Assembly (NCBI GenBank): GCA_008632985.1
Contig: QPGO01000230.1
Span: 1-64,000 of the forward strand
Origin: Psammoneis japonica
Taxonomy: Eukaryota
Length of the DNA: 64,000 bases
Reading direction: 5' to 3'
This document shows, piece by piece, positions 1 through 44,810 of the stretch (its first letter is position 1; each line of letters starts with the position of its first letter). The position numbers were made by a program, and so were the translations under genes. The notes under the pieces were generated by a model that made no database searches, was not told where the DNA came from, and saw only the letters and a list, made by a program, of their open reading frames with translations.

Positions 1-3000
1 TTTTGAGGTGGTGATGACCCATTGAACTTTTAAAAGAGTTCATTTGTTTTCCATGAGGTGAGTGTGAAAATTGGTTTCAAGAATTTTGACAATCTGTTTC
101 TCTTTGCAGTCTGACTTTTGTTCCACCATTGCTTGGTTGTGCAAGAATGAATTTAAGAAGCTGGAGATGCAGCAAGTGGCACATCATTTTTGCAAGCTTG
201 TTGGCAAAAAATTGTTCAACGGCAACTTGAAAGGATGTCACCAGAAGTTTCCAAATTGGAAGAATGATGGAAAGGCATGCCAAAGGGAGAGAACGATTTT
301 GGGCGGGCGAGTCATCCATTTGTGCTTTGTTGAACATTGGAAATGGCAAAATTGGTTGTTTTCCAAGTTGCTCTTTTTGTTGTTTGCAATCAAAAGGATG
401 TCAACAAAGAAAGAAGAGTTTTGTGCTTTTTGCATGGCTTTGGGTCTCTTTCTAAATTTTCATTGGTTGCAACGACACATTCAAATTGTGATCTCTGAGT
501 CATTTGTTGGGGATTTGGAAAGCAAGGTGACAAAACTCAGAAAATGTTTGAAGTCTCACACAAAAGTGGCTCACACATGGCTGTTGCAAAACTTTTAAAT
601 TGCACTTTGGAGATTCACATCCCAAGGCAAAAGCGCTGCACCAAGCAACAAATGCTTGAAGATGAAAAGCAATGTACAAAGAAGGCTGGGGTGCAGGGCA
701 GCAATCAAGTTGGAGGAAGTGATTTCAAGGTGAGTCCAGTGCAAATTCAGTAAAATGCACCAGTTGTGATGCCTCAAGACACAGCAAAGAGAGCAGTTGT
801 GAATGCAGTTGTCAACCACAGTTGCAATTTGGTGACATTGGAAATCCTCCAGGCTGCAGCTTGAGTTGGTGACAAACCCATCAGTGATTGAAGTGGCAGA
901 GTCTGCCAAGCAGAAGTTGTGCATGCACAAGTGGATGCAAGTGCTTTCAGAGCACAAGCCCATTTGATTTAATTTGGAAATTGTGGGGTGCATGTTTGTT
1001 CATTGATGCTTTTTGTGTTGTGCTTTTTTTGTTTTTTAAATGTGGTTGCTGGTGGAGTTGGTCTGACAGAGAAAGATGACAACGAAAGTGGTCACAAGAA
1101 AAAAAGACACACAACTGAAACTGCCAAGTTAACTTCCAAAACTCACGCCAATGAGGAAGAGGTCAAAGAGGACAGCTCAAGCAACAGCGATGGCGAAATT
1201 TCCAGTGAAGAAAATGTGGAATCTGCAACTGGAGAGGAGCAAGAGAAAGTTGCAGAAGTGGACAGTCCAGTTGAAAAGGGCAAGGAAATGTTTCAGCCAC
1301 ATTTGGAAGACAAGAGCAGCAAGAGCAACAACAATTCAGTGTCAAGCAGCAATTCCACCACAATGTGATGGTTGCATTGGCAACAGCGTGCATGTTCAGT
1401 CATTGTGTTTGGTTTGCTTGAAGTTGCCAAAACATGGTGTGTTTGAGATGTTTTCATGCAGCAATTGAGTTTGATTGAAACACAACTGCTGCAATTCATG
1501 TGATGCAAGAATTGGCAAGCTTTGTGAGCAAGAAACATTGGCAACATCTCACTCTCAAATGATGAGATTGACAACACCATTTGCAACTTGTCATGCTTGT
1601 TTTTAAGTCAGTTGTCAAAGATCCTGTGTTGATGACAAACAAAGATGGTGTTGTCATGGGCTTTGTTGCCAACAAACTCAAATTGAAAATGAGAGAAAAG
1701 TGCAAACAGAACCTGGATTGGACAGAAGATGTGATGATGATTGTGAAGAAAAAGGTCATCCCGAGTGGTGTTGTTCAAGAACCACACTGGACATTCATGC
1801 TCAGGGAAGAAGAAATGTTTTCCTGTTTGGGTGAATGGTGGTGAGTTGGTTGAATGAAAGCAAAGAAAGCTCAGAAGACATCCAACTCCAAATCCACCAT
1901 CACACTTGCACAAAGTGCACAAGTTGATCATCCATTTGAATCCCAAGGAGAGTCAGATCACCACAAAAATCATTTTGTCAAGACACAGTGTTGGTGGGCA
2001 GTTTGGCAGGATTGAGATGACATCAGCAAATCAGAGAGGCTCGCGCCATTGACTTGACATGTTTGCAGCCATTGTGCCACAAATGTTGTGTCAAAATTCA
2101 AAGCAGTGCAAGCACAGCCAAAGAAAAAGTGTCAATGTCAAGCCCGAAAGACAACAAAAAACCCACCAACATGCTGACAATGATGCCAGAATTCATTCGA
2201 GTTTTGCACGTGCAACACACAAAAGTCAGTGCGCGACAACTGCTCTTTGCTTGCATGACTGCATCAACTGCACAATGCTCACTTTATCATCAGTGGGGAG
2301 TTTGGCAAGATCACATTGCAAGGACAAATGAGAAAGGATCAGAGCATGTTGAGTTGTCACATTGAAATGACAAATGACATGACATGTGTGCAGCAAATTG
2401 CTGAAGCTTGCCCAGATTTGTTTTGCAACATTGTGCCCAAGTCAGATTTTGAAGATGTCATTTTTAAAATTGTTTGTCTTTTGTGTCTCTGACTGCTGCA
2501 ACCAGGAGAAGAATCTGATGATTTTGCCATGAAATCCAAGAAGTTTCCAAAGTGAAAAAAATGCAAATCCAAGAAGCAAGGAAAAATTCAGAAAAGAACT
2601 CATGCGCGACATGTTTGCCACAACTTTGACAAGTCTGGCCAAGTCTGGCAGGGCTTCTGTCAAATGAAAGGTCTGGGCAGCAAAAAGATGGCTTCTGCAA
2701 CAGCTGGGGCACTTTGTTGCTCCAAAAAGCAAACCAAAGCTTGCCTTTAAACTGAGAAGCAGCACAATGACACCAGCTCAAGGTGTGATCTCCACCACCA
2801 AGTGAGTTTGTGTTGTCTGAGTTCACATTGTCTGCAGCTGGACTCAATTGAAGTGCAGCTGGACTCATTTAAAAGAAGAGTCCTTTGAGGACAAAAGACA
2901 ATCCATTGTGAGGGATCATCAAATTTTGTTTCAATGCGTGCAAGACATTCCCAAAGGACTCCATGATTTTGACATTCACAAATGACATTTCACACAGAAT

Positions 3001-11030: not shown

Positions 11031-11199
11031 GAGCACAAGTCAATCAACTGGCACCAAAAGGCAACTTCCTTTTCCTGCTTTCCATGGCAGAATTCATCAG
11101 ATTGGGATTTTGGTGAAGCAATGAGCAGATCAAGGTTGTGCCGGTTTCTTCTGCCTTTTCAAATGGCATGGAGTGCATCATGGATGCCTCTGATTTTAC

Positions 11200-11930
11200 A
11201 GCATTGACACTCAACCTTTCAAACAAATGTGGAAAGAGGCAAGAGTGAAAGTTGTCACATGGCAAGACATCCTGCTTTGTGCGAGTCTCCAACAAGAGAT
11301 GCATGCAAACCTTGGTGGCCTCCTTGAATGCAGAAGCAATCCAAAGGCATCTGCCCATCCTTGCTTGTTTTTTGGAACACAACCAAGTGCCATGCTCTAA
11401 CAGGAATTTAGCCACATTGCCGTTTCCTCTCAAACTCTCAACATGCAGTGCTGCAGTCCTTTCAGCAGTGCGCTGTTCTGGGTTGATGTCATTTTCCAGA
11501 AGCATGCAAGCAAGGCTGAGGTTTTCTTGTCTGGTGCATGCAAGCAGCAAAGGTGTCTACCCCCTGTTGTCTGAAGCATTCACATTGGCACCCCCAGTTC
11601 AACCAGCAAATGTGCGATGCCTTCCTGACTGCACTTGCAGGCACAAAGCAATGGCGCATGCATGCACTCATCTCTGGCTTCCAAATCAGCGCCATTGTGA
11701 GCAAGAGCCCCAACGACATCAGCATTGACAGCATCATCCCCACAGCAACATTCAAATTGCAAAGGAGTGAGACTGCTCCATTTTGTTGCATTGATGTCAG
11801 CTCCATGCTCAACTGACAAGCTTGTGAGTGCAGGGTGGCCCTTGCTGCATGCAACAAACAGTGGCGTTTCTGCAGAATTCAAGTTGTCAACAGCATCCAG
11901 CATCCACCCATGCACTGCATGACAGGAGCA
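11200..11930 (-). pseudogene. Ankyrin-repeat protein pseudogene
   Basis: ETPLFVACSKGH...VEHGADINA, LAHNGADLEARD, TAALHVESLRGNGNVAKFLLEHG. Broken across frames. Confidence 0.75.
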
Positions 11931-12969
11931 ACTGCATGACAGCTTCAGAGCTGTTGTGGCAAGAGAAATGAAGAGAGGGTGAGTTCACACCATTTCTTGG
12001 CTCTGCAATTTCACCGTGGCCCAAGAGCACCTAAACCATTTTGGTGCTTCCAGTGGCCACAGCATGAAAGAGTGGTGCCAGTGCATGGGCTTGGGGTTTT
12101 TAGGGGGGGATCAGGGGACCCCCAGTTTGTTTTGTCTGGAAAAATGGGTCACGAGCCACTTCCATCATGCAGCTGCCATCTGGCAGCACACACCACACAC
12201 ACAGAGCCAAATGAGCCCCGTTGACCCCCCCTTTTTTGATTTCCTTGTGGATTTCCCAATGTGAAAAAACTCCTTCCTGAAACCCTGAGCCTGGAGTGGG
12301 TGCACATCCAGAAAACACAGTGCAACATGGGCTCACAATTTCTTCCCCAGAATTGTTCAGCAAGTGTCAAACTTCCTCCAAAGTGCCATTCTCTGTTGTT
12401 CAACAGAGATCTTCCATTGCAGGCAACGGAGTTTGTGAGTCAGAAGAGAAGATGCACAAGGCACTCTTGGCAGAAGAAGTTCACAATGAAATGAATGAGG
12501 AGAGTTGAAGTCATTCCAGTCTGGCAGAGGGGGAGGAGTCCTCATCATGGCAAGTGTCGCTCACCAAGGGGGCTGAGTTTTTGAAAGAGAAGGAAGCGCG
12601 GGAGTTGTGCATGGAGACACCCAGGGTTTGAATGGGCGTGCAGAGAAAGACCCGAGCAAAAGACACATGACGACCATTTTCAAACACAAGTCCACCTGTC
12701 ATTGGCAAAGGACAAGATGAAGTGGAGCAATGGCAATCTTTCGCGCTGTAGAGTCATTTACGTAGAAATGTGCAGAACAGTGCCAAGACAATTGTTGAAC
12801 AGTCTGTCTGTCTGTCCTCAGTGAATTTTAAGTTTGCGAAAAATGGACTTGACTGTTTTCTGATCAGGTGCACTTTTCTTCAACACATTTGCAAAAATGT
12901 GCCTGACCCGACAACAGTCAAGTCTATTTTTGCACAAATCGTGTGAACATGTCAGTTTCAGTGCAAAAA

Positions 12970-19490: not shown

Positions 19491-22400
19491 TCAATCATCA
19501 CATGTGTTGTGTGGTGTCACACCAACGAGGCCATCTTGCTTGATGCCACCGCACATGATCTTAGTCGCAAGATCAGCCGGATTGCATTCCGATCTAACAT
19601 GTCCTGCAAGGGAAACACCCACAGCCACCGACTCCCCAACGGCATGGTGGCACATGGAGTTAGACTTCTTCTTCAAAGTCGACTCTGGGCTTTGGGTGTT
19701 GTGGATGACTGACATGTTGTCCCCACAAATGTGTGATGGTCCGCTGAGCGGGACTCCCATCATCCTGAGTTTGTGCCTTGGGCCTCGCAAAGCTTCCATG
19801 CCCTGCTTCACAGCCACAAACTCAGCACCAAAGACTGAAGTCTCGATGGTGCTCTGGCACTTGGAGAACCAGGCAATCAATGCCATGTTCAAACAGACAA
19901 AATGACCAGCGCGAGAGCGTCTCGTCACTTTGTCATTCGCATGATCTGAATCTACAAATGGACGCAGATCAATGTCCTTGCCCAGAGCTTCTGGTGCATT
20001 CGGCAGAATTGCCTCCTTAATGTCCCCGTAGAATGCCTGCCAATCACATTCCTTAAAGTCAGACATGTCGACATCCGGGTGCGTCGGATCGAACGCTAAC
20101 GTGGCATCATGTCCATTCTTGAGGCATCCACACACATGTGGGACTGCGTCGAGATGACCTTCTCTGGGCATGGCAAGGAATGAGGCAAGCTCGGACACCT
20201 CTACCATGAGGTCGACTCATCCGAGTTCCACCATCCAGCGTGGGACTCCTGCCTGCGACTGGTGAAATCAAGCCCGCTCTGCATCAAGCTCTGGCGTGAT
20301 GTCGAGCTCCGGTCGACAGTCGCACGGAAATGGAGCCGTTGCCTTGCGTGGCAACGTCCATCCGGGAGTAGACTCATCTAGATGCCCCTCGACATTTCTG
20401 ATGGCCTGTTGGATGTGCTTGCCAGAGCTCATGCTCCACGCGCAGACACCGTTCGGCATTTGCACTTCACGGATCTTCGCCCCGAGGCACATCTCAGGGT
20501 CACCGATGGATCCGGGTTTCATCTTGAAGCATCGGTCCAATTCCTTGAGCGCCAACGCAGCGTCGTGGTGCACCATGAGCACGTCGTCGACATGCAACAG
20601 TGCACAGGCGTGGCAACGGAACCCATCATCTGGTCGAACTTGTGCCTTCATCCACACATTGGGATCAGCTGGACATGGTTCCCAACCAAGATGACGCATG
20701 CACGATGCCAAGTGGTTCCTGAAGGATGCACCTGCACTCTTCAATCCGTACAATGCGCGCTTAACTGTGGCACGCTTCCCAGCATTGGGTCCAAACTCAG
20801 GTCCCAGAGTTGCAGTGATCTTCTCGCTGTTAGGTGCGGTGACATGGGCATTCTCAATGTCTGCAGCCTTGACCTCTGAGTCATTTAGAGCCGCTGGAGC
20901 GAAGGCAATCCTTGCACTTTCACGGGAGACGACGCTTGCGTACGTCAGGGTCGCTGGAGGTTCAGTGGCATGTCCCCCTGCGACATGACGAGCCTTCCGC
21001 TTGAAGTCTTGTAGTTTGACATCAAAGACCAAGTGGCAGCGGACATGCTGGCAACCCACAAGTTCCTCGTCATCGTCAACAATCTCAAAGGCTTTCGCAA
21101 CGACTTCGATCTCCTCATCTACGGCGTCCTGCCACAAGCGGTCGCCGTCAGCCTTGTCGATCTCGACTGCCTCTTCACAGGTCTTGGGAATGCGCATCCC
21201 GTGCTTGTGAGTGCGCTTGTGACATCGCTTGTTCACAGCGGCTATGATTTGCTGACGTTTCTTGACGGTGAAGGGAACCCACCATGCGAATGCGGGTTCA
21301 TCCTCTGTGGATCTAGCCCCAGCACACTCTGCCATTTCTGCTGGGTTAGATTCCTTCAAGTCGGACAGTCGTTCCCAAGATGTGGATCTGTCTTTCCATT
21401 GCACGCAAAGATGCCAGCCTTTGGCAGTCTTGCGCATGGATTGACGTCCTCGACTGTCTTGGATGAAGGCGTCCTCCTTCTTGACAGCATGCCCGTCAGT
21501 CTTGTGATCAACAATTGCATCTGGCAACAAGTGCTGGTTGCCTTCATTGTCACACTGTGCGAACACATTCTCAGCGATGACATTCGCCGCAAATTCCACT
21601 TCCTGTCCATCAGGAAACTCGACCTCACACACACGAGTGTCAAGCATTGGGTTTGGGTTAGCCCGTCCGGCAGGTGTGCCGTCCGGATTGAGCTTGCGTC
21701 GCTTCACTGTCCCAGTCTGTTCCATGTCCCCGTGAGGTGGCAGTGCTTCTGCATTGACATGTTGATCATAGGCTTCGTCTGGTGTGTCATCCTCATCGGA
21801 GGCACTAGACGGAACATCCTGTTCCTTGTCATCCTCGTGTGGTTCGAAGGTGGGAGCAATTGCGTCAGGGTCGTCAAAGTCCCCGACGGTCATGCCAGGG
21901 CCTAGCTTGACCTCTGTCAACCTGTCAAACTTTTCACGCAACGCCATGTGCGTCTTGTGTCCCTGCTCCTTGGGAGTTGGTGCCCTGTAAGATGAGCGAT
22001 GGACAGCCTGTCCGTTCTCCTTGAGTGTCTTGGCCGTCATGGCTGGGCCCACATCCCTGCTCGGACCCAGACATCGCCCCAGGACTTCCTTGTCCTCGGG
22101 AAATGAGACTGCCGTGTCTCGAAACATGACCCAGTCGCACCAGCCTGGTTCGCATGTGTGCGAGATGTCAGCCGTCTGACCGGACACAACAGTTTCTGGG
22201 ACTTCACCGTCAAGCTCATAGATGCTTCGAGTGGTGTTGGACCTGACAAGGCCTTCCAGTTCCAGGCAATCATCCCACAGGCATTTTGGGGCCTGTGACT
22301 TGACCATCTTGCGCCCAACACCTTGCTTGAGTTCACGGATTGTGCCCTCTGCGGTGTTGGACCAAGGGGTGTGTGGTTCAGTTTGTCTCACATGGCAATC

Positions 22401-23618
22401 AGCCTCCCTGGCTTTCTTGCTAAACTGCCCCATTGTCTCTTCTCTCACCCCGTCCACTGGCACAGTGTGGGGCATGCCTTCTTGCGCGAAGAGCAATGAC
22501 AACGCCTCGTGCTCCAGACGTTTTGACTTCAATGGACAAGCGCGTGCCCATCCATTGGACATTGCGAACACTTGTGCACACACATTCCCTCGCCCAGACT
22601 TGACAGAGGAGAACATGGTGTCGGAGCACATCTCCTTTGAGATGCGCCTGCATCGCAGTTGTTGATCATTGGTGCAGAAACGTCGTGACAGCGCAGGATG
22701 TAGAACCATCCTAGCTCCACGCTGTGTCGTAACCTTGAGAGTGTTCTGAGCATCCTTGAGGCTGATGGACCAATTCTCGGCCAAATGTTCAGCATCAACC
22801 TTGAAGCTGCGCTTCGTCGTCTTGAGCGAAGACAGTTTCATGGATGCCAGTGGCAAACGGTCATCACACGCATTGGAAATGTCACGTGACGGCTGATTCC
22901 CCAGAGAGTCTGAGGTCTCTTGAGCTGCAGTGCGTGAGAGCTTCGTGCTCATGATGTGTGCATGAGGACGCGCATTGTCCCCGGTCTCATGCACTCTGCC
23001 AAGAGCATCGGTCATGGCATCTTCCCCAGCGTGGAAATCAGAGGAGGCGGGGTCCCATTCCGGGGACTCATGCATGAGTTCGCACACGCTCCCATCTTGG
23101 GCCGCATCCTCGCATTGAGACAAAGTCGGGACACTGGAGGGGAAGCAGCTCGAGACTCCCTCCAGGTCCAAAGGTGTGGCCAATGAAGTGCCATTTGCGT
23201 CCTTGGCGACAATCACATGTTCCTTTTCATTGGGCTTTGCCAGCAGAAACTTCGGTTTTAATGAAAGTTCCACGTCATTCAGCCACAACTGCATTGGACA
23301 CAGCAAGTTGTGCTCAAGGTGTGGTGTGTGGACTGCTTGGTGGACAACCAAGACATGTGGGTGGCCCGTCTGAGGATCGGTGTGAGTGACAGCTCCACTG
23401 ACGGTGCGCAGACGCTTGCTGGCACCCAATGTCGGGTCGCACCCTTCTGTGTCTGCTGGCCTGTCATGGTCAAGTAAAATTAAAGCGTGCTTGCCTGGTG
23501 CGCTCATGTCTGCATGACCATCGATGTCCGTGCGAGACTCTTCGTTTGATGGTCCCTTGGCCTTTGTCTGGGTTGAGCGCAAAGTCTGCAACGGACTGAG
23601 CTGCATGACAGCCACCAT
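19491..23618 (-). pseudogene. pol: copia pol (PR, integrase, RT, RNase H), inactivated
   Basis: DIDGHAD (PR). SDTMFS / VDG / AEGTIRELK (IN). ALYGLKSAG, LLHVDD (RT). FVDSDHA, STIETSVFGAEF, NPADLATK (RH). Stops around 20210-20270 and many Tyr->Cys/His changes. Confidence 0.92.
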
Positions 23619-23624
23619 TGGCGG

Positions 23625-25115
23625 TCACTCCTTGCGACATCCAGCCTTGGGGACATGCTTGCGAGCAGCCTTGCGAATCAACGCCTTGTTGTCGCGGTTT
23701 CGATCCTGCTTGGCAGCCAGAGGCTTCATTGGCTCTTCAGTTTCAGATTCACTGCTGCCTTCATCAGATGAATCGTCCATCTGAGCTGAAATGGCAGCGA
23801 CCGTCTTGGTCAGAGCCTTGATCTGTTTGGCGTTACCGGCCGCCGTGGCCTTGCCGGTTTTCGTGTCACCACGTGTGTTGCGCAGCGACTTGAGCTTCTT
23901 CCTGGCCTGGGGAGACAGCTCACTGCACTCTTTGGGAGGGTGGCACTTGTCCTCCACGTCATCGGCATGAATGACAGCCTCTCGTCTACGCTTCCCAGCC
24001 TTGAGAGCCGCAACACGAAGATGTTTTGCGTCATTGTCCGGCTTGGACTGCTTGATGAAGTCCTTGAACAGAATGACGCAAGCATCAAAGTCGTTGCGCA
24101 ACGTTGCGCCAGACACAATCTGCATCTTGACTGAGTCAAGCGACGAGTCCTTGACACTTGCAAGGAGATGGCGGACCTTGGATCGTGCATCGATCCCGGC
24201 ATAACCATGCTGGGTCAAGCCATCAAGAATCGCGTGTTGTTCGACATGAACTCGCACGCAGCGCTCAAAGTTCCAATTGCGCTTTTCCCCGTGGTGGGAC
24301 AAACTGGCAAGGCGCTTTTCAGCGGCGTTCGCCATGTCATCTACATTGTTGGGGCCCAAGAAATGGTTGCACAGGTTCAGGCAGGCCGTCCTGCCATCCT
24401 GACTCCTCTGGGCCGACTTGACACAGGCCCAACTCGTGTGTTCTCGCTTGATGCCTGCAACAATTTCCCACACTTTGATGTCATCGGCCGTGAACGTTTC
24501 GGCAGGTTGAGGGTCGTTCCCAGCAGCAAAATGCGGGGCCCTCGCGATCATCTCATCGACAGGATTGTTGCAGTTGGTGGCCGGATCATCGGCCTGGGGA
24601 GTTGCTTCCTGGTTGTCACGGATGACGCACGCTAGCGGCATTTTCATCTCGCCTCGGCATGCCCGCAGATGCTCCTGAATCGACTCGATCGTCTTTGGCC
24701 AGTCCTTCTCGATGATCGTTGGTGGTGTTTCGGGTGGCACGTGGGTCTCCTCTGTGGTGCGGAAGTGTCGGCAGCCTCGCACTCATGCAAGGTTGATGTC
24801 GACAGCTCGCAATGTCCGCGACATGCGCTCACAGTGGCGAGCCACATGCGCGGCGAGCTTGAGATTTGTCTCGGCTCGCAATGGGACTGACATCCCTGGG
24901 TTGGGTTGGGCGTTCCCTCCTGCCGGCGGATTCCCTGCCGCAGCCCCTCCTGGGCGACGAATGACCTTGCATGAGGTCTCGACCTCATGGTCATCGAGAT
25001 GACGCAGTTCATCGACTGAGTCGATTCCCTGCTCATCGGTTAAAGCCGCGGCTGCTTGCGCGGTAAACCCCAGTCGGGTGTGGGCAGCACGCATCGCTGC
25101 AGCGACTGCCGCCAT
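23625..25115 (-). pseudogene. gag: copia gag with an internal in-frame TGA
   Basis: MAAVAAAMRAA start. DWPKTIESIQEHL, GEKRNWNFE, SKVRHLL and LRNDFDA are typical of diatom copia gag. Premature TGA at 24783-24785. Confidence 0.85.
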
Positions 25116-31599: not shown

Positions 31600-34500
31600 G
31601 AGCATGTGACAATTGGCCAAGATTGGCATCACCCTCTGGTGATGCCGCGCCGAAGTGGCTTGAGATGGTGCGCATGCCTCTAACAGCTGTGCGCCGGGCC
31701 TCTCGAATGCTCGACTTGAACATTGGTTTTACCATGGCGAGCCAGTTTCGGAGTCTGTGGGTAGAATGGGTGAGATGTTCATCTGCCAAATCAAACAACT
31801 CTGCTTGATCCCAGGCCAAGCACTCATCTGCCCCAGAGTAAATCTCTTTAACCTCCGCCTCTGCGTCCCGTCGTTGCGAAGACTTTCTCATCTCTGAATC
31901 GTGTCCGTGTGCTGCATCATTGCAGGAATCCCACAATTCCCGCCATTGTGACCACACACAATTGCCAACTGTTGCCGCCCAGTCTAATCTTTTGTCTTTG
32001 TCGGACAAGGAGCAACACAAGCCGGAAGACTCCAAGTGTGACATTTGTGCCTCATTCCACAGAGAAGAGAAACGCCCGCTGAAAAATGTGGTGCCAACCA
32101 ATGTCGTCTTGAGATTGAAACAGCTCTGTGACACTGTGATGTGCACGGGTAGAATGGAGCAATTCCTCATTGAACCAACCTTCCAAGGCACACAACAACA
32201 GGTCTCGTGTGGACGGGGAAGTGTGCATGTCATCACATTTCTTCTGCAATCCTTGGAGAAATGTGCGCCGCCACGATGCATTGTGGGCACAACGCAGAAT
32301 GTGATCCCTGTCCTCAAGGGGATGTTGGCAGTGTGTGCAGCAGTTGGGGCGTGCAGGATTGTGTCTGTGGACAATCTTGTTCATCGGCAGCAGATCCTGA
32401 ACCAATTTCACGGTGCTCACCTTTCGTCGGATGTTTTGAGACATCAGTTTGGAATGAACTTTCCAATCGACAGATTCGCACACTGAGTCAGACCATCCAT
32501 GCTTCTCCTGCATGTGTTGGATCAGAGCTGGGCTGGAAGCTTTGCAGCGGAGAACTGATTTAAACTTCGAGTTCACCGATGCTGACTGGACATTTGGCAG
32601 TGCATGGCAATGGGGCATTCGGGGAGCCATTGGGGCATCTCCAGTGCATTGACCCTGAAACAAACCTGCCAACCCGTCGGCTCTAACATTCAATTTTGCT
32701 GGAAACGGGAGGGACTCGAACGGAGTGTTGTCATCCTGATGACTTTTAATCCACTGCATGTTGACGACGTTGCTTTCAGGGTGTCCATTGTGTTGGGCCT
32801 CCAAACTTGTCAGTGAAGCGAAGATTTTGTGGATGACGTCCCAGTCCGGTGCCAACGTGTTGGCGATGTGATTCCGAAAATCTTGTTGTCGTTGTGAATC
32901 ATCTGCATCCAATGGAAGCGGTGGGGGAGATTTAAAGTTGGCAACGTTGCGCACCAGAGAGGAGTTGTCACAACAGGCAGCCACACCGTGAGAGAAATGA
33001 CAGTTGCAAAATTCCAGCACTTGAATGAGAAAGCACAGAACTGACAAAAATCTGCGTGCTTCTGCACAATGCAAGGACGGTCGGAATCCGAAGACCGGTC
33101 CTGCACAATCCACCAGAATCACTCCGTTGACCGCTGGCGTCCAGCCAAAGGTGCCATTGAAATGCAACACAGAGCCATCACTTCCTGCTTCTGCACGGAA
33201 GCACCCAAGGGACTCCACCATTTCGAATGCCGACACGTGCATGGTGAGGTCACTGAACAGGGTAGACTCCCATGACGACAAGGACCGCAACCATTCGCAA
33301 AAGTCCCCAAGGACGGGAATTGTTGGTGGTGTCTGCACTGGGGACACAGTGGATTTTACTCGCCATCTGCCATCTAGAGTCGTGTCTGCCATGACAGGTG
33401 ATGCCAATGGAGACAGATCTGGAACCGTTTCCAACTGCTGCAGTGTTTCAGCGCACTCATCCTTGACTGGAAACACTTGATGACCCGCATCAGAATGGAC
33501 ACACAAAAACTCTTTGGAGGGCTCGTAATGGGCAGGATGAAGCACACACATCTGAGAGGCAGGGATGGTCCATTGACCTAAAGGGGTTCGGAGGATGGAG
33601 GCACCTTCGTTGCACAACAGAGCCATTGCTCGGTGCCATTGTTTCCAGGCGCGAAGAGACGGGCGTGCCTGTTCAACTGGATTGAGTGATGACGCGCTGC
33701 TTGTGAGGGAAGTTTGCCCTTTCAACTTGAGTTCATCTAAATGTTGACCATCGGGAAGAGCAACGTCTGAAACAGCAAGTGCCCGCAGGAACAGCCTGCA
33801 ATGATTCACCCACCCAATCTCCTTTTCAGAGAAAAGATTGGAGTCCAGTGCAACGTCCATGATGCATTGATCATTCTCTTGTTGTGTGGGAAGGACGCCA
33901 GTGAAGTCCAGTTCGAAGTGAGCATCCATGCAGGCGAGAAAGGATCTCATTGACATGAACCATTTGGACTCGGAATGTGGGAGTTTTGTGTTTACATCGT
34001 GCAGAAAGCTGGACCCTGTTCCAAGCTGGAACTGTGTCCACGCTGCTGCAATGCGGGACAAAGCATGAGGTTGCCCAGTGCCACGCCAGTGTCGAAGGAA
34101 CTGCAAACATTGAGCGATGCCCTGCTCCACGTCAAGAGAACGGAATCCTCCACCTCCCCAAGGTGTGTGGTCCATGTGAAACATCCCGCTTGGCATTGCG
34201 GTTGCAACCACACTTGGCAAACACAGTTCGCACAGCCTTTCGTTGAATCTCAAGCAGTTCTTTCAGTTGAAAATGTGCACTCGGAAGGATGTGCGTGGGT
34301 GGAGGCCAGGTGGCACGCAAAGTGGTGAGTCCATGCCTCATGACGGTCCAATGGACACGACCGGAGAAACAGAGAAATGTCATCACTTTTCGTTTTCAGT
34401 GCTTTGCACTGAGTCTTCTGAGTGCCTGCAGGAGATTTGCAATGGCCCAGTGTCTTGTGGGAGGAGCAAGCTGAATGTTGTGTGCTGGATCTTTTGGTGG

Positions 34501-37460
34501 ATCTGTCAGCGGAGTGCATTTCAACATCAATCTCGTCATTGTACGCCCAAAGGTGTGGCTCACCATCAGCAGCAAAATGCCATTCAACAGCATGAAACGA
34601 GCACTTTGGAAGCTCCAGCTCATGTCCTGCTGCATCCAGGAGGTCGCACCACAACTGATTGTCTTGCTGCACTCGAGGGACAAGGTCCAGCGCATCTGGT
34701 TGGGGATCAGCACAAAAGGCATCCACTTGGTTTGAGGTGTCGTCAACACACCCTCTGGTGTGCACCCGCATTGAGACTGTCCCATCGGGAGTTTCAAAGT
34801 GTGCCCCATGAGCTTGACTGTCAAACAGCCAAAATGAGCTGTTGCAAATTTGATTCCAACAAAAGGGTGAATTCCTGCTGCCCTGACCAGTCAAGAACTG
34901 TCTTCAACCAGTGTCTTGCGTCATGTAAAGTGGCGTTTGCCGTCTGAGTTGTTGATTTGGGCATGCCGTTGCTGCGGCTTTCGAGCGCTGTTAAAGCAGG
35001 AATGTTGCGATCATGGCATGAGGTGCAATCTCCATCACTGTGAATCGCAGTTTTCTGGGAGACTCCACCAATCTCAAGCATGAGTTCCTCAAGGCACACC
35101 GGTGTGTGAGCATTCAAAAAGGGACGCGTTCCGCAGATGCCTGGATTGCACAAACAACGGTGTTCCATGTTCTGCGCCAAGGCTCTCCATTTCACACTGG
35201 ATGTGAGTTGGAAATCTGCCTCACAGATGTGGACAACTCGGAGACGATGCATCTTGTTGTCACCCGGCTCTTTGAAAATCATGACGTTGACAACATCCTT
35301 CCACCTGTTGAACGAGCATCCCCAGCGCAGGGCACAGTTTAACAAATTCAAGCAAGTCCGAATCAGCCGTTGTTGAACTTCATTCAAATGCTGGCACTCA
35401 GGCGTGGGATCACCTTCGTGAGCAGCAGATCCTGAATGAGAATGAGATGCACACATTGCTTTCCAGTGTCCCAAATGAAGGCCCGAAAATGTAGAAGCAG
35501 ATGCAGTTTCCTTCCACACCTTGAGTTTCCCTTTAAGATCACACTCCGTGAGGAAGTTGGACACCGACACAGGTGAACGTCTTCGGAGATGTTGGACGAA
35601 GAGAGCAGCAGCGCTGTCAAGAGAGGATGCATCGCACTCTCCGTCTAAGATCAGGTCAGCCACAATCGTGTCACCTTCGCATCCGAGATCCACAGACAGG
35701 GGAGGAACTGCAGGAGGTGTGTCATGTGCCTGTCCAAAGTGTCGCTGATTCTGAGAACACAATGCCGCTGAAACGTTGTCTGGGGCATTGATCGTGATCC
35801 AATCCATGCACTCTTTTGGACCAGCAGCCGGGTTGCGAGGGACCTGCACGCTGTTGACTCCTGTGTCATGTTTTGCCTTACACGCATTGATCTTGCGAAA
35901 CAGTCGGGCGGTTTCTTCTGACTTCCGCATGTTCCAAATGATTTTTGCCGATTTGCGGGTGGCCGCTGCACCTTCTAGGTCCAATTTGGCGATCTTCCCT
36001 GCTGGTTCCCGTTCATGTTGCTCGATGCTCTCCTTTGCGACTGCCTTGCATTCAGCCTGTGCCTTGCGCAAGGCAACTTGACATTCATGAAATGTCTTTG
36101 GGATCGAGAATGAGCCTGTCAGCTTTGAACGCACCTGCTGGATCTGAGCAACATGATCAAGATGGCTCCTCATCATGGAGAGAATGCAAGCAAAGACACA
36201 TGCTCTGTGGCGGAGATCTGCCAACTTGACCGACCAGTCGGTTTCATGGTGGGATCGACACTTTTTCGCGGACGCCGGGGAGAACTGGAGAAGATCTCGG
36301 TCCAAGCGTTCTGCCAATTCGTGATTCGGAGCATCAGACTCAAGGAGCTGGGTGGATCTTTCCAATGCAGACCGGCCATCAAGCATGGGTCTGATGGAAG
36401 TTAAGTGCGAGGTGACCTGAGGTTTGGAAGAAGCCTGAATGTCGCGAAAGGAAGCTTTGGGTAGATCGACGGTGGGGTTCCCGAACAGTTCCATCGTGTT
36501 GAAGTCTACAAAACATGCCCAATGATCTGACGTGACACGGTGTCCAAATGCCTCACATCCACCCAGGCGAGCCGCAGACAAAGCTCCTGGAGATGCTAGA
36601 ACACAGTCCAGTCGTTTTGAGCCTCTTGTGCATGTGGAAAATTTGGAAACACCAAGGATTTGGAACAGGACGTCCAACAAATTGAATCGTTGGGCAAGTG
36701 AAGCCAGGGAGTCTGCATCCAGAGAGAAGTCCGCATTGAAGTCACCGAACAAGATCACTTCTTGGTTGTTCTCCGCTCGAAACTCTTGAAGCACACGCGA
36801 CAGGTCCGCACAGAAGGCTTTGCGGGGGTTGATGGAATTGCGGCCTTGTTGGCACAGTAAATGCAATTGTTGAGCGCAGGCTGTTGTCTTCACTGGTTGT
36901 TTTTGGTTTTTAGCACAAACTCTGTAGCATGAGACAAACATGACTTGTCGCCCATTGCGACCGTCAAAAACCTGAATGGACCACCGGCCTAACGGATCGC
37001 ACTCCTGGGAGCGGAATCGGGCCGAGATGGAATTGCACGACACAATTGCGGTGCCACCCGGTTTGCATTGGGCAGAAAAGGGCACAGAACTACAAGAAAA
37101 TGTGCCTCTCCCATGGAGAAGGGATTTCGAAATCGCAGACCTGCACACCAAGAGCACATCGAATTGGGTGGTGTCCAAACACATTTCTGACACTCCGACC
37201 ACGTCAGCTTGAATTTCGTTGGCGATCTGACAACAACCGTTGAGATCCCCGCCGCACTTGTCGAACTTGCATCCATTGGCGTTGAAGGCACAGAGTCTAG
37301 TGTGATGTGGTGGTTTGGACTGCAGTTCATGCCCGATTGATTCATTTGTCTTGAGACGGGAAAAATCGATCCTGCAATCTGCCGAAGGAGGACAGTGTCC
37401 ACCATCTGGCACGTGTTGCCATGCAATCAAAGGTGCAGCTGAAGAAGACTCGCCATTCAT
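31600..37460 (-). pseudogene. LINE ORF2 (AP endonuclease, RT, RNase H, CCHC finger), frameshifted
   Basis: AFNANG, GVSE, GDFNAD, RLDCVL, SDH (APE). RGCVDD (from GYVDD, RT). SDGS, CCDNSSLV, WIKSHQDD, NVRADGLA (RNase H). CTHC...DHILRC. Confidence 0.9.
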
Positions 37461-37662
37461 GGTTGGGCCTTGCTCCTCCAAGGAGAAGACTGGGGCTCAC
37501 AGCAATGCAAAGGATCTGAGGCAGTTTGAAAGGAGAACTTGCGACACCGAGAGGTGCATCGAAATGCGTGTGCCAAAGTGTGAGACTCTCGAAGTCTTGG
37601 GGCAATGTCTGGAGGATGCCCAATCGTTTGAGGGGGTGGAGGCGGCGAAGTCCAACCCCACG

Positions 37663-39423
37663 CTAAAAATCCTTCTCCTTGTCGCGATGGTCGCCAGACC
37701 TCTCTGGTGTTTCATTGTTGTTGGGACGTTTCCGTGCAATGCTCTGTGTGGGTTGGCTTGCCTGCAACAGTTGGACGATCTGATTCATCTGTGACTGCAT
37801 GCCGGACAGTTGTTGTGAGCAGTGGTCCTGTGTGGCCATCATGTCATTCGTGTGCTGAGCAGTGAAAGCATTGTTCAATGCCTCCATGTCCCGAGAATGT
37901 TGTGCACTTGTCTCAGCGAGGGCTTTGTCATGTTTCTCTTGCATTTGGTTCACAGTCTGTTGAACTTCTGCCAACTGTGCTGCAGTGATTGACAAGCTGG
38001 CGGTTGACTGTGTTGCCTCTGCATGCGAGTGCGGGGAAGATGTTGAGCTGCGACATCCTGGAAGGCCACAGGAAGGTGGGGAGAACTGGGGGCAATGAGT
38101 GAAAATGTGAGGAGGCACCGCCAAGCCTTGAGTGGTCCCTCGTCCAGGGTGACCTCTTCCTTCATGCCCACATCCGGCGAGTGGTTTCGAAGCAGGTTGT
38201 GTCAAACTGGGAGCCTGGTTGTCAGTCAACGGAGACACGTTCAAAAATGTGAGAGATTCGAGACTGCGAATGCCAGCCGACACAACAGATTTGCTGGTGT
38301 CGGACAGTTCTTTGAGGACACCTGACACTTGAGGAGGTTCCGAAAACAGGGGAGATGGACAAGATTCTTTCGAAATGGAAGGGATCAAATTCACAACGCA
38401 CGTTGAAATGGCTGCTCAGATGGTTTCGAAATTTTGACGGTCCACGAGAATGGTGTGTCGTCCATCAACAATCGTTGATTTGAACATGTCCTTCATGCCG
38501 GTCAGCGCCTTAAGGTGATTTTCGAAATAAAACATCATGTCCGGGGTGGTGTTCAACAGCGGCACCACGAAGGTGTCTTCGTTGTGACGAGCTTGCGTCT
38601 TGACGGCGTTGTAAAATGCAAGAGGGGAGACATGACAAGTTTTCGCCATCACGACATGAGTCGGGAGTTTGTTTGACGCGCAGAGTGACGCCTTGCCCGC
38701 AGTGCAACATTCTTCACGCAATGCTTTGATGGCAAAGGTTGCTGTCTGAAGCGGGGTGGCAAGTCCATCATTGTCAGCACGGATCAAAGCAGGCACCAAA
38801 CGAAATTGCGGCATTTCAGTGCGGAAGCTGCTGAGGTCACTGATGAACAGTTTGGCAGCTTCGTCGACCGGAGCATGTTCAGTGGATGCAGCAACATGAT
38901 GTGCCGGAGTGGCCGTGTCGATGTCGGACTCGTTCCAGAAATGACGTTTCACACCCATGTTGTTTGAGTCCAAAATGCTCTGGACATGTGGATGGGAACG
39001 GATTTCGTGCAGTGGAGTCTTGGTGAGAATGCGGTGACACAGGCAATGAGTTGCCGGGCGTTTTTCGCCGCTGCAATTTGTCGTGACAACAAAATGTTGT
39101 TCGTGTTGGAGGGAAGCAATCCATTCTGCCACGTTGACATTCGTGACATGGTTGTTGTGGTTGTCAAGAATCTGAACATCCTTGTGGCACGTGAACAAAA
39201 TTTGCTGTAAGACTTGCAAATGGGCGGCAGCAAGAGTCATGGGCTTGCACGACGATTCTTTACCACGAATTTCAAAACGGAGGGTGATCTCTTCTAACTG
39301 ATGCTCTGTCGGCTTGGAAGAAAGCTCAATGGAAGACTGGTCGACAGTGACATCGTCTGCCACAATGGCATCTTTGTTGTGAGTGGGGGTGCGGCTGCCG
39401 TCAGTGACAGAAGAAGACGCCAT
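37663..39423 (-). pseudogene. LINE ORF1
   Basis: ATG in ACCACCATGG context 37 nt inside the 5' end. Two long frames (38416-39423, 37663-38394) with a coiled-coil-like C-terminal part. Confidence 0.7.
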
Positions 39424-39460
39424 GGTGGTTGGCTGTTCCACGGGGAACCTGGCATTAAAA

Positions 39461-42400
39461 TTGTCCAAAGGAGAAAAACAGACACCGGTGACTGTGGGTC
39501 CTGTGGTGCATGCAACAAATCCGCAAAGCATTGTAAGATGGATTCCAAGTCTGTGGGAGAGATTCACCCATCAACCCGACACGGCCACCATTCTCGTGAG
39601 CAACTGGAGAACAAGATGTCAAGCTTGGCAAGCAATTTGAGGAAAGTTAGAAGTGGATTAAAGTCTTTGTGAAAACTCATGCACTCTGACAAGAGCCGGC
39701 TCTACATTGGCTCAAATGATGACCATCTGCGTGATTTGCTGTTTGACTCTGCAAAATGCTGTGAAGACAACAAGAATGATGTCCACAAAAAGATCCTAGA
39801 GTGTGTGGTCAAGCACATTGCAGAAATGGAGGGTGCACTTTTGCCGTCAAAGCAGGTGGAAGCCAAGGCATCACAGATGGTGGATGAGCTGCTGGGCGCC
39901 ATTTGCAACTTTGCCAAGAGAGCCGCAGGAAAACCAAAACAATGCAGCTTCTCTCCCCGACTCATGCGGATGGCCTTGGCTTTGCATGCTGAATCTCCAA
40001 AAGGCTGCAAACACTGGAGTGAGTCTGGAATCATGCCAATGCCTTCTGTGCCACATTTGAAGCGAGTCAAGAAAGCCATGGCACCCAAGGAGGGGACGTT
40101 CCCAAGCATCTGCGGATGGGCTGCAGATGCCTTCACCGGTGGCTGTTGCAAGAAGGTGGTTAGCCAAATTCTTTGTGATCAACTCAAGCTGAGATTTGAC
40201 TTCTACTTCAACCCAATGACCTCTGTCTGCACTGGCGTTGTTGTTGCTCATGACCAAGACAGGATCCAGCTGGCTGATGAGGTTCTGGCGTTGGTGAAGA
40301 AAACTGACAAGGAGGTTGCCAATGTTGAGCCAGAAGACAACCTGGTTGAGCAAGACAGTGCCAAGGACAGCGGCAAGGAGGAGAGCACAAAAGAGGCCAG
40401 CTTCAGCATCTCTCTCTATGCCAACCAGTTTTTTTTTCAGGTGCTCTGAGACAAACAAAACCCACCCACTTGAGTTCTTCTTCAGCAATGGGCAATGATG
40501 GGAGATGAGCTCATGCGCCAGACCAAGCAGACCATCCTTGGGTGTGAGCTTGCTGGGCTTGTTGTGGCTGGCTTTGGGCTTGATGCAGGGGGAAGCAACC
40601 CCAGGTGTGTCAAAATGTTCTGTCTTGGCAAGGTCCCCAAGGACACAGACACTTGGCTTGATGACAGCATGTGCTCATTTGTCAACCCTGCTGACCCAAC
40701 TCAAAGAGTGGGCATCTTCTTTTGCACGGTCCACAATGCAAAAGGATCAAGGAATGCTCTCTTGAGCTCAAGCGAGGTGCCCAACAACTCATCTTTGCCA
40801 AGAAGTTTCAAGCAACATGGCACTCACTTTGGCTGGCCAACGATCAATCGGATTTACAAAAGAGAACAAAAGAAAAGCATCCAAGACACTCCCCTCACTC
40901 GCGAGTCAGAGCAGCCTGACAGGTGGAACAAAATGAATGTGAACTTGGTAAAGCAAGTCCTTCACTCTGACACAATCAATGAGCTCACAAACCACCTGTC
41001 TGAGGAGCTTCAAATTTTCCACCCAGAAGCTCAGTTTGCCAGCAGTGCAGACAAGACCATGGTGCAGACTGTGACCGATTTGAAGGGCCAGTTTGTGAAG
41101 ATTGATGCATCCACTGTGGCCAGCTCTCAGCTGCCTCAATTTGAGACAGCAATGTCAGACGTGATGACTCTTGAGTTTCTCACGCACATGACAAACATCT
41201 ACACAGAAATGTTCATGAACAGGTTTGCACGAATCACCCCCAAGAACATTCAGAAGTGGAAGGACAAGGTGGCAGTGACACTTGAGTGCCTTCGTGATTG
41301 GTGCGCAGAGCAACTGAAGGGCAAAGAGGAGCTAAAGTTGAAAGACTCTAAGTCTAAAGAGTGGCAAAAGTGGTTTCCATCAAGTCAAACTTGTCACGCA
41401 CTGCGTGTGAGTGTTTGCGGTTTCATGGTTCATGCAGAAACTGTGTGGAAGGTGGCGGGAGACAGGGTTTTCATCCCATTCTTGCACTCCAACACCAGCA
41501 TTCTGGAAGCACTGTTTTCCCTTGTCTGGCAACACAAAGGTGACACGCCACTGAGCCACCCAAGCACAACAGGAATTGTGGACTCGCAAAAGGCATTTGC
41601 AGCCTTGGATGGAAATCCCATGTGCGACAGCGAAGACATCACCAGAGCCGAGTCGACGGGCGACGACCTCACCAATCACACAGACAAACAAAGACACGCC
41701 ACGGTGAACCAATGGCTGCAGGATCGGAATGCCAGGAACTCAACTCACACCCTGGATTTGTCCACTGGACAACAAATCGAAACAAACAAATCAAAAGGCA
41801 GTCAAGGCGCAAAGTTGGTGCTGGACAGAATGAACATGGAAAGCAGGGTGTGGTGCGACGACATGATGTTGAGCGACATTGACTTCATGGAGTGTGCCAA
41901 GTTGGCAGTTGGCACTGAAGAAGAACGTTGCTTTCAAGCACTGTGTTGACTGAACAAAGCTGAACAAAAAGCCTTCCATGAAGCCTGTCAGTGCCTTTGG
42001 GGAGAGATGGAAAAAGGATGCGAGAAGTTTGGAAGGCGTGGAGTTGAGCGGTCCTTCATGGTTCAAGTGTGCAAATTACAAACAGACATGGAAAGGATGG
42101 GCACTTGCCATTCCAGGCTCCCAAACACTCTGAAGGCAGAAACGGCAGAAGATGGCAAGCCCAAAAAGCTGTTGGTGTTCCACATCCTGATTGTTGACTT
42201 CGTCACCTCTTGGTTTGCAGAAGAATTTGTGCGAACTCTGGATGATGCCATGGAGGATGGAATCTTCCAAGAACCCAGAAGCATTGATGAAGCAGTCAAG
42301 AAAGCCATGGCAAAAGACAACAAGAAATGGGGAGCAATTGCCTCATCTGCAAATGCCATTTCTCAGGAGGACGCAAAAAAGGAGGTGACATGGTTCCCAG

Positions 42401-43000
42401 GCTGGGCAATGGCGAACGCACGCAATCATTTTGAAGCAGACTCTGAGAGTGGAAAGAAAGCAGCAGCAATGCTTGATGAGATGGTGATGGACAAAATGGA
42501 GTTGAGAAATGCAGCGCCATCCATTCGAGAAATGGTGTGTCCCAAGACACTCAAGCTCAAAGATGAGTCTCGCGGCCGCGCCGGAAAAGAGGATTGCACA
42601 TTGGTGTCCCCCAAGTTTTTTGCATTCGGGTTGCGATTGCTTGCTGCAATTCGCGGTTGCTTCAATGAAGCCACAACAAAGAAGCTGGGGGAGGATGGTG
42701 CAACTGCAGCATGCGACAAACTTGCAGACGAGGCCATGGAATTGCTGTGGAACGACTTCGCAGAGTCGATTCCTGATGCAGTGTATGATGCTGCAAGCGA
42801 TGATGAAGCTGTGCAGCAACTGTTCATTTGCATTGTCCAAAAAACATTTGTGGCTCAAGCATCACGAGTGGTTGACTCATTTCGGGAGGAACACACAAGC
42901 AGACATGCATCGAAAGTGGTGGATGCTGCATTGCGGGAGGGATTGAAAGTCGTGGCAAAAAGGGGAAACAAAAAAGACGATGTCAGCAAAGAAGAACAAA
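39461..43000 (+). pseudogene. P-element/THAP9-like transposase core and C-terminus
   Basis: FSPRLMRMALALHAESP...MPS, LCDQLKL, GLDAGGSN, CTVHNAKGSRN, KMNVNLVKQV, NTSILEALFS. Frameshift at about 40440 and stops at about 39670 and 41947. Confidence 0.85.
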
Positions 43001-43194
43001 TGATGACAACAATGCACAGTTCAATCTTACCTTGCCATTCATTGTTGCACATTAAGAAGCAACAAACGGCTGTCCAAACCATGCCACAGCTCATCCGCAA
43101 GAACAGCACAATGCCACGGATGCCTGCTCACGACCACAAATGCACAAGACAGCCCACTCCGCTTCAAATGGGTGCCTTGATGTTTCCTTTGGCA

Positions 43195-43575
43195 ATTGCA
43201 CAAGCAGCAGACAGCAGAGTCTGTGAGAACATTTCCTTGGCATGCAGCTGTGCTGTCCAAGCAACAAATCATGAACAGCACAGAAGACGAGCTCGCTCGT
43301 GGGAAAAACGCACCATTTTGTTTTGCCAAAACGCGATGGATGCGACCAAGCCAGTTCGTGTTCAATCAACCAGCAGTTGTGTCCTGTGGCAATGATGCAA
43401 GAAATGGACAACAGAGTCCATGAGAGCATTTCATTGACACGCAGCTCCAATCCACAAACCACAGAAAGCAGAGAAGACGAGCTCGCTGACAAAACATGCG
43501 CGCCATTTTGCTTTGCCGAAATGATGGATGTGACCAAGTCAATTCGCACTCAAGCAACTGACAGTTGTGAGAATG
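43195..43575. repeat. Diverged tandem repeat of about 195 bp inside the P element
   Basis: Shared blocks CAGAGTC..TGAGA.CATTTC and GAAGACGAGCTCGCT...CCATTTTG...GATGGATG.GACCAAG occur twice. Confidence 0.6.
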
Positions 43576-43838: not shown

Positions 43839-44810
43839 CACAGAGCTGTCTGCAGTCCTCTCGATGAGTCGTGCTGTTGTGTGAGATTTTGGCGATGGAA
43901 CCGCTTTCCGCTCCACAAAAATTCTTAGAGGCACAGCACGTCGTGACAGGCGGAAGCACCAGCGTGATCCACCTCATCGTTTTGTCGTTCGTTCGTGCAT
44001 GCGCTGAGTGTGCGAATGCGTGTGTGCGAACGACAACAGACTGTTCATGCACCTCTGCCCTCGTTGTTGTTTCGAAGTTTGCATTCGTGACATCATTCGT
44101 GATTCTGTGTCATTGGTTGGGGAAACTGCCTGCTGGCCAGCAGTGCGTGCGCGTGAGAAGTTTACGTGATTCGTGCGTCGTACGTCATGTGCACGCACGC
44201 ACGCAAGATGCAAGCCACACAGCAAAACGAAGCCTTGATGTCATCATTTGTCTTGTCTTTAAATCATTTTTTCGATCTTTTTGACCGAGCTTTTCTCGCT
44301 CTCTCTCGCTCTGCCCAGCTCCAGCACAGAGCTGTCTGCAGTCCTCTCGATGAGTCGTGCTGTTGTGTGAGATTTTGGCGATGGAACCGCTTTCCGCTCC
44401 ACAAAAATTCTTAGAGGCACAGCACGTCGTGACAGGCGGAAGCACCAGCATGATCCACCTCATCGTTTTGTCGTTCGTTCGTGCGCGCGCTGAGTGCGCG
44501 AATGCGCGTGTGCGAACGACAACAGACGATTTATGCACCTCTGCCCTCGTTGTTGTTTCGAAGTTTGCATTCGTGACATCATTCGTGATTCTGTGTCATT
44601 GGTTAGGGAAACTACCTGCTAGCTAGCAGTGCGCGCGCGTGAGAAGTTCACGTGATTCGTGCGTCATACGTTATGCGCACGCACGCACGCAAGACGCAAG
44701 CCACATAGTAAAACGAAGCCTTGACGTCATTATTTGTCTTGTCTTTAAATCATTTTTTCGATCTTTTTGACCGAACTTTTCTCGCTCTCTCTCGCTCTAC
44801 CTAGCTCTAG
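43839..44810. repeat. 486-bp tandem duplication covering the right P-element end, TSD and flank
   Basis: Copies 43839-44324 and 44325-44810, differing mainly at TA and CG sites. Confidence 0.95.

Follow-up and report, generated by a model that had tools for sequence, protein, structure and literature searches.

A TpA-to-TpG/CpA hypermutation signature in retroelement-bearing domains flanking a gene island of Psammoneis japonica

We analyzed a 64,000-nucleotide stretch of DNA from Psammoneis japonica (contig QPGO01000230.1 of assembly GCA_008632985.1, positions 1 to 64,000; hereafter the window), in which two long domains that contain Copia-type and long interspersed nuclear element (LINE)-type retroelements are almost devoid of the dinucleotide TA (TpA) and lie on either side of a short gene island of ordinary composition. 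Dinucleotide content was expressed as the ratio of observed to expected counts (O/E) and profiled in 1-kb and 2-kb bins over the whole window. The 221 open reading frames (ORFs) of at least 100 aa were scanned against Pfam, and the limits of the three retroelements, here called Copia1, Copia2 and the LINE, were set by tblastn with intact homologues. The window holds the following features, listed in order of position.

1..44530: left TA-depleted domain, drawn from the TA and CpG O/E profile.
11047..11984, minus strand: ankyrin-repeat ORFs (Pfam) in the most depleted domain, TA O/E 0.064.
19494..25082, minus strand: Copia1, a long terminal repeat (LTR) retrotransposon with gag-pol and RVT_2 (Pfam, tblastn), TA O/E 0.149.
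24541–28095 and 28088–31643: tandem 3.55-kb units, 95.9% identical (self-alignment).
31600..37394 (start approximate), minus strand: LINE-type element with Exo_endo_phos (Pfam, tblastn), TA O/E 0.108.
43839–44324 and 44325–44810: tandem 486-bp units at the edge of the left domain (self-alignment).
44531..51420: island of ordinary composition (TA O/E ∼0.6, CpG ∼1.1) with a leucine-rich-repeat (LRR) gene, a minus-strand ORF pair at 48855–50354 and an inverted-repeat element.
44870..48146, plus strand: the LRR gene, with ordinary TA (Pfam, contigs of run X2).
50226..51299: terminal inverted repeat (TIR) element of 1,074 bp with perfect 22-bp terminal inverted repeats (self-alignment, contigs of run X1).
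51421..64000: right TA-depleted domain, TA O/E 0.04–0.13, reaching the end of the window (O/E profile).
57096..60596, plus strand: Copia2, a frameshifted Copia-type element (tblastn), TA O/E 0.056.

Convincing Pfam domains among the 221 ORFs were limited to RVT_2, Exo_endo_phos, ankyrin and LRR, with a Copia-type reverse transcriptase in 20268–23624 (minus strand), a LINE endonuclease in 34821–37496 (minus strand), ankyrin repeats in 11047–11984 (minus strand) and leucine-rich repeats in 45457–47991 (plus strand). None of the 221 gave a transposase match, and the ORFs at 40474–41946, 41950–43392 and 38419–39570 matched nothing in Pfam or PDB. Homologues of the LINE are ∼1900–2000 aa long; a full HMMER search with its ORF returned 4058 relatives and a word-indexed search with the same ORF returned none. 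A putative LTR pair of Copia2, at 52.7 kb and 61.8 kb, gave no clean alignment. The ankyrin-repeat ORFs may be a gene fragment or pseudogene, that is, a piece of a host gene caught in the depleted domain. Named relatives of the Copia protein are Fragilaria crotonensis and Nitzschia sp., and those of the LRR gene Seminavis robusta, Thalassiosira sp. and Cylindrotheca; among the 120 matches listed for each of these two queries, every named homologue is a diatom and the name of the chlorarachniophyte Bigelowiella natans, to which we return below, is absent.

Over the whole window the O/E is 0.16 for TA and 0.55 for CG, while TG and CA reach 1.64 and 1.60. The depleted span measures at least 44 kb on the left and at least 12 kb on the right. 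From 1 to 18 kb the TA O/E is 0.049 as a whole, with 2-kb bins of 0.03–0.06; in the further 2-kb bins it lies at 0.05–0.33 from 18 to 44 kb, at 0.47–0.66 from 44 to 52 kb and at 0.04–0.13 from 52 to 64 kb. Expressed as counts, there are 66 TA in 1–18000, 245 in 18001–44790, 290 in 44791–51400 and 66 in 51401–64000, and the 300 found in 1–44500 compare with a mean of 2935 and a minimum of 2843 in 200 mononucleotide shuffles. Both edges are sharp, spanning a few hundred bp, with TA dense from ∼44,530–44,600 and sparse again past ∼51,420, and the gene island between them (44600–51400) has a TA O/E of 0.605. The TG and CA O/E is 1.38–2.24 in the depleted domains and exceeds 1.52 in most, though not all, 2-kb bins, and the two counts are about equal in each 1-kb bin. 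TG and CA follow each other in random order along the saturated domains (runs z = -0.08, 0.38 and -0.64), and the runs test found no long strand-coordinated tracts of either dinucleotide there. The few TA that survive in 1–18 kb are mostly TTAA (24), CTAA (21) and GTAA (9); ATAN makes up 5 of the 66 remaining sites there versus 121 of 290 in the island.

The direction of change was read from protein-coding positions. Copia1 was aligned to 120 homologues of 45–57% identity, and a column was taken as conserved for tyrosine if at least 70% of its residues were Tyr. At the 21 such columns with a residue in Copia1, this element has Tyr twice, Cys 11 times, His 7 times and Trp once, while control columns for other residues are retained in Copia1 (Cys 6/6, His 10/10, Pro 33/33 and Trp 15/16). 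The Tyr content of the Copia1 protein is 0.45%, compared with a homologue average of 3.7%, and the replacement of Tyr by Cys or His is seen in none of the 120 Copia protein homologues. Pairwise comparisons give the same picture: at 49 Tyr positions of the single homologue P0125, Copia1 carries 3 Tyr, 19 His and 18 Cys; Copia2, on the opposite strand, carries 1 Tyr, 12 Cys and 10 His at 37 Tyr positions of P0125; and the LINE carries 2 Tyr, 15 Cys and 13 His at 56 Tyr positions of its homologue P0243 while retaining Trp at 34 of 39. Since TAY to TGY and TAY to CAY are the two-strand products of an A:T to G:C change at TpA, these comparisons indicate that the direction is TA loss, and both products occur in each element irrespective of its orientation.

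Much of this had been anticipated by an earlier reading of the bare sequence (the original prediction), which proposed that TpA is converted to TpG or CpA throughout the repeat domains. The near absence of TA with an excess of TG and CA is confirmed, as is the ordinary TA content of the gene region; the right edge had been placed correctly at 51,400, while the left edge, at 44,790, lies 200–300 bp too far to the right. The motifs it quoted as having lost a tyrosine are all present, namely HVDD (20583–20594), ENAH (20844), VCEVEF (21615), KRCHKRTHKHG (21198), GRCLGP (22062) and GCVDD (34739) on the minus strand and LHGLK (59384) on the plus strand. For five of them the homologue consensus does contain the tyrosine (LLYVDDIL, NAYLTAP, KRYHKRTHKFG, GRYLGP and ALYGLKSAG); VCEVEF corresponds to TRTYxVEF in the consensus, where no residue reaches a majority in the column of its Cys, and GCVDD belongs to the LINE and lies outside the Copia alignment. 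Its claims that TA is lost rather than gained and that both strands are hit agree with the 18 of 21 conserved Tyr columns of Copia1 that now read Cys or His, with the same pattern in Copia2 and the LINE, and with the Cys:His ratios of 11:7 in Copia1 and 12:10 in Copia2 beside near-equal TG and CA. As for the targets, LTR and LINE elements in both orientations and a pseudogene-like ankyrin-repeat ORF are affected, but an effect on the DNA elements it also named is not confirmed: none of the 221 ORFs gave a transposase hit, and the one clear TIR element is not depleted. Its confinement of the mutator to repeat chromatin is an inference.

The two tandem 3.55-kb units allowed the substitutions to be examined by context. 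They differ by 144 mismatches, 121 of which are transitions inside TA, TG, CA or CG steps, made up of 21 adjacent CA/TG pairs, 41 sites with TA in one copy and TG or CA in the other, and 38 sites with CG in one copy and TG (18) or CA (20) in the other; there are no TA/CG pairs. The rest include 8 transitions in other contexts and 5 differences that are single transversions. Counted per site, A/G differences occur at 42 of 114 positions after T (36.8%), at 5 of 532 after A (0.9%) and at 3 of 418 after G (0.7%), and CpG differences occur at 38 of 376 (10.1%), so that TpA is ∼40–50 times as mutable as A in other contexts and ∼3–4 times as mutable as CpG. Such a tabulation by dinucleotide context, a check that the original prediction had proposed for TE copies, comes out with TpA enriched over both ApA and GpA. 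Among ATAN sites 9 are kept and 20 mutated, compared with 27 kept and 22 mutated in the other TA contexts, and together with the surviving sites in 1–18 kb these counts suggest, with moderate confidence, a flank preference in which ATA/TAT is hot and TTA (TTAA) is cold or refractory. The loss is patchy, in that one 3.55-kb copy can be mutated and the other intact over a few hundred bp. One TA-dense patch stands out in copy 2 at 30271–30314, within a TA-rich stretch at 30091–30560, and its counterpart in copy 1 is a mixture of TG and CA.

The tandem 486-bp units are placed so that the edge of the left domain runs through the pair. TA is present in one or both copies at 16 sites; both copies keep it at 3, only the inner copy has lost it at 12 and only the outer copy at 1, and CpG has been lost at 8 sites of the inner copy and 2 of the outer. 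Because the two copies differ by the side of the domain edge on which they lie, editing of an RNA before reverse transcription cannot have produced the difference. Together with the divergence of the 3.55-kb units, this indicates a process that acts in situ on chromosomal DNA, once duplication has taken place, and that depends on position, much as the original prediction had argued from the range of elements hit. The spared outer copy, and a multi-copy TIR element that is unmutated, further suggest that repetitiveness alone is not the trigger. That element contains internal TTTGTCG-type repeats, is multi-copy in run X1 and is missing from some copies of its flank, since X1 contigs join 50222 to 51298; unlike the neighbouring repeats it is CpG-rich and not TA-depleted (TA O/E 0.665 over 49800–51400), although it may simply be young.

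Loss of CpG accompanies that of TpA and has to be separated from it. The CpG O/E is 0.17 over 1–18 kb (2-kb bins 0.12–0.31) and 0.34–0.96 over 18–44.5 kb, and it is mildly low, mostly 0.6–0.96, in parts where the TA O/E is already 0.1–0.3. These profiles point to ordinary 5-methylcytosine-type CpG decay in the same domains, running more slowly than TA loss. As a control we profiled 80 related Copia loci from metagenomes, in which the TA O/E is 0.47–0.98 and none of 1304 1-kb windows falls below 0.3, compared with 217 of 253 in our stretch. One of these loci, L007 (4250 bases, from another organism), has a CpG O/E of 0.01 and yet a TA O/E of 0.47; since it keeps TA despite extreme CpG loss, CpG decay alone does not remove TA. 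The metagenome loci are biased to intact copies, with a search pattern that in one case contained Tyr, and for that reason they say little about the process in other diatoms.

Support in sequencing reads came from the public run X1, whose contigs were built from 31-letter words and whose depth of 28–36 is that of single-copy genic pieces. X1 contigs match the TA-free stretches 36969–37293, 52785–53318 and 53320–54000 with 0 differences (325, 534 and 681 bases). Other family copies in X1 differ from the window mainly by transitions (A>G 146, G>A 146, C>T 132 and T>C 141, with each transversion at 11–25), and they often show adjacent CA/TG swaps, as expected of different products at one ancestral site. 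In an alternative reading, a modified base at the TpA of silent chromatin would consistently be called as G or C, or would be miscorrected during polishing. In its favor, base modifications do cause systematic errors in long reads, and the record of the supporting run names no platform. Exact contigs at single-copy depth over TA-free stretches nevertheless require accurate reads, every site carries one clean product, TG or CA but never CG, the depletion is graded with CpG decay and element age, and products at the same site differ among copies of one family, all of which make such an artefact very unlikely.

We consider the best explanation of these data to be a region-specific hypermutation that would convert TpA to TpG or CpA (A:T to G:C at 5′-TA-3′ on either strand), acting to near saturation on silent, transposon-filled chromosomal domains of the nuclear genome, with slower CpG decay of the 5-methylcytosine type in parallel and the adjacent gene island spared. 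As a whole we give this explanation a probability of roughly 0.8, and the phenomenon as described, apart from its agent, is highly probable. The depletion, its direction, its specificity for TpA and its action on both strands, in place and according to position, are each shown by the comparisons above. The agent would be an enzyme, guided by the state of the chromatin or by silencing and not by the number of repeats.

Several observations weigh against this explanation or complicate it. All mutations here are reconstructed from one 64-kb window and would not count as de novo observations, and the signature is absent from the 120 Copia homologues and the 80 metagenome loci, so that the case has no replicate outside this genome. 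The X1 sample is probably the same as that of the assembly and its platform is missing from the record, so its contigs, which reproduce the TA-free stretches exactly, offer good but not fully independent support. In the 3.55-kb pair, 24 sites carry reciprocal CA/TG products where ∼7 are expected from independent decay, and their orientation is skewed, with copy 1 CA and copy 2 TG at 20 and the reverse at 4 (p = 0.0015); losses in one copy alone show no such skew. Simple independent decay does not explain the excess, which may be the trace of a strand-specific, pairing-dependent episode on paired copies. Lastly, a three-way alignment of a 177-bp repeat gives 2 sites of TA loss and 2 sites of CA to TA by simple parsimony; the sample is too small, and parallel TA loss can account for the latter two.

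The rival accounts differ mainly in where they would place the mutational step. If the elements had always been poor in TA, or if TA were avoided as a nuclease or insertion target, no mutator would be needed, and TA is in fact mildly under-represented in most genomes and varies from 0.47 to 0.98 among the related Copia loci; but catalytic and structural tyrosines have been destroyed, as where the reverse transcriptase motif LLYVDDIL of the consensus has become LLHVDDVL in Copia1, which means that the depleted copies are dead rather than adapted, and young duplicates still differ at TA, so that native composition or selection is virtually untenable. A-to-I editing of transposon transcripts by an ADAR-like or TAD2/3-like enzyme, fixed by reverse transcription and re-insertion, would suit the fact that all three annotated elements are retroelements. 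RNA hyperediting is, however, not known to come near the ∼95% saturation seen here, the tandem DNA duplicates diverged at TA in place, mutation within the 486-bp pair follows position with one copy mutated and its neighbour spared, the strands are hit equally within each element in any orientation, and the depletion is uniform also in unannotated DNA and the ankyrin ORF. We regard this route as very improbable, even though ADAR has a matching 5′-U preference (according to the discussion of bioRxiv 10.64898/2026.01.13.699255). Error-prone repair synthesis in silent chromatin by a polymerase of the Pol eta type (WA to WG), which the original prediction had offered as one candidate, would likewise act on DNA, and its A to G direction and 5′-T context fit half of the WA motif. 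The other half fails, with ApA not elevated (0.9% against 36.8% for TpA), and this candidate is extremely improbable.

Two routes to the same base change are harder to separate, because TpA is its own reverse complement and T to C cannot be told from A to G by sequence. Thymine at TpA might be enzymatically modified, for example to 5-hydroxymethyluracil by a dioxygenase of the TET/JBP type, and then mispaired or misrepaired to C, giving CA directly and TG via the other strand with symmetric outcomes; 5-hydroxymethyluracil of dinoflagellates is enriched at TpA. We know of no demonstrated T to C hypermutation by such a route, no sequence feature of the window favors it, and we think it unlikely. 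The agent of the proposed hypermutation would more probably be a TadA/ADAT2-type enzyme that deaminates adenine in DNA to hypoxanthine, which is read as G, although we advance this step only tentatively. In tRNA, the natural substrate of TadA/ADAT2, the target A34 follows U33, which would agree with the 5′-T preference. This substrate is one of our two reasons to favor an adenine deaminase. The other is that the authors of the B. natans study found a candidate of this kind; they too prefer adenine deamination, likewise without proof (bioRxiv 10.64898/2026.01.13.699255).

That study (Mettrop et al., in the same preprint) describes hypermutation at TpA in giant-virus and virophage DNA integrated into the B. 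natans genome, so that our case would be a further instance of a recently described mutation process, and the view of the original prediction that no description existed no longer holds. According to its text, 231 of 302 de novo mutations fell in two viral inserts, 230 of these 231 were A to G or T to C changes on TpA, the mutations were confined to some mutation-accumulation lines at a rate of ∼1e-7 to 1e-6 per site per generation, and the genome holds 124 TpA-poor clusters enriched in reverse-transcriptase and DDE domains; as agent the authors put forward, so far unproven, an ADAT2-like adenine deaminase, and diatoms go unmentioned in that text. Under the cut-offs given there for a cluster (TpA ratio ≤0.43, CpA+TpG ratio ≥1.52), both 1–44.5 kb and 51.5–64 kb qualify, with TA O/E of 0.03–0.33. 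The two systems share A:T to G:C change only at TpA, TpG and CpA products, clusters poor in TpA and rich in CpA+TpG, and a restriction to particular silent or foreign regions, which in our one window means two Copia elements and a LINE inside domains presumed silent and a spared LRR island. They differ in host, B. natans being a chlorarachniophyte (Rhizaria) on another supergroup branch whereas the named homologues here are all diatoms, and in target, chiefly viral inserts with clusters of a few kb there and Copia, LINE and unannotated DNA across whole domains here. The TpA ratio of the giant-virus region, as reported in that text, is 0.45 compared with a near-saturated 0.05 here, and the mutations were seen arising there while ours are read back from sequence. 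New with respect to B. natans are the parallel CpG decay, the flank preference, the sharp edge beside a gene and the reciprocal CA/TG sites.

Repeat-induced point mutation (RIP) of ascomycete fungi is alike in that it hypermutates a specific dinucleotide by transitions, destroys transposons within chromosomal DNA and creates domains of distinct composition, but it proceeds from CpA to TpA (C:G to T:A) and enriches TA, the opposite of what is seen here. RIP also needs duplication and hits both copies, whereas one 486-bp copy is spared and the multi-copy TIR element is untouched, although an episode that depended on pairing could lie behind the 20:4 reciprocal sites of the 3.55-kb units. Editing of mobile elements by the animal deaminases APOBEC3 (C to U in DNA) and ADAR (A to I in RNA) is similar in kind, and ADAR also in its 5′-U preference (same discussion); these enzymes act during reverse transcription or on RNA, with changes inherited at insertion, whereas the mutations seen here build up in situ on both strands and extend to DNA in which no retroelement is recognisable. 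Deamination of 5-methylcytosine shares the TG and CA products and is present in the same domains, where CpG O/E is down to 0.12–0.3 in the oldest parts, but it cannot remove TA. The distinction that had been drawn from both RIP and CpG decay is thus upheld by the opposite direction of RIP and by the low-CpG locus that keeps its TA. Apart from the B. natans preprint, a search that left subscription journals and bioRxiv supplements outside its scope found no report of the TpA to TpG/CpA signature in diatoms or elsewhere: the accessible text of PMC9998398 discusses diatom relatives of DNMT4/RID with no mutation signature, and none of the signature terms is present in that of bioRxiv 10.64898/2026.07.24.739820. 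Overall, the earlier interpretation is partly supported.

If the proposed hypermutation is real, it would be found in a second, distant algal lineage as a TpA-specific A:T to G:C mutator aimed at mobile DNA, and what has been a single-species preprint observation would widen into a type of genome defence that mirrors fungal RIP. One can speculate, with some doubt, that diatoms have an enzymatic, silencing-directed DNA editor that erases TpA in transposon domains and does the same job as the B. natans process, possibly by shared descent; base-editing defence would then be old and widespread in the stramenopile-alveolate-rhizarian group, and the 20:4 excess would reflect strand-specific, RIP-like episodes on paired copies. 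The data would point to a naturally occurring editor of A:T pairs in DNA that obeys one strict dinucleotide rule, which bears both on base-editing tools and on the way in which mutators are recruited by silencing marks. There is a practical side as well, since edited transposons would lose nearly all tyrosines and most TAA and TAG stops and so escape profile searches: Pfam found only two of the three homology-confirmed elements, and each of these two by one weak domain match. In diatom genomes this can mislead the annotation of repeats, the prediction of genes and the dating of elements.

Stop codons in the depleted DNA are almost all TGA, with 962 TGA, 81 TAA and 30 TAG on both strands of 1–18000. 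Their spacing is 33.5 codons in depleted DNA compared with 26.0 in the island (44600–51400), only modestly longer because TGA increases while TAA and TAG drop. Many of the long ORFs in the depleted DNA have no homologues.

Within the island, contigs of run X2 were informative on the structure of the LRR gene. X2 contigs give no cover over the transposon zone, an absence that carries no weight on expression. Across the LRR gene they omit the GT..AG intervals 46873–46953, 47021–47127 and 47268–47360, as spliced RNA would; the gene therefore contains three or more short introns. Run X2, although listed as ‘DNA?’, behaves like RNA.

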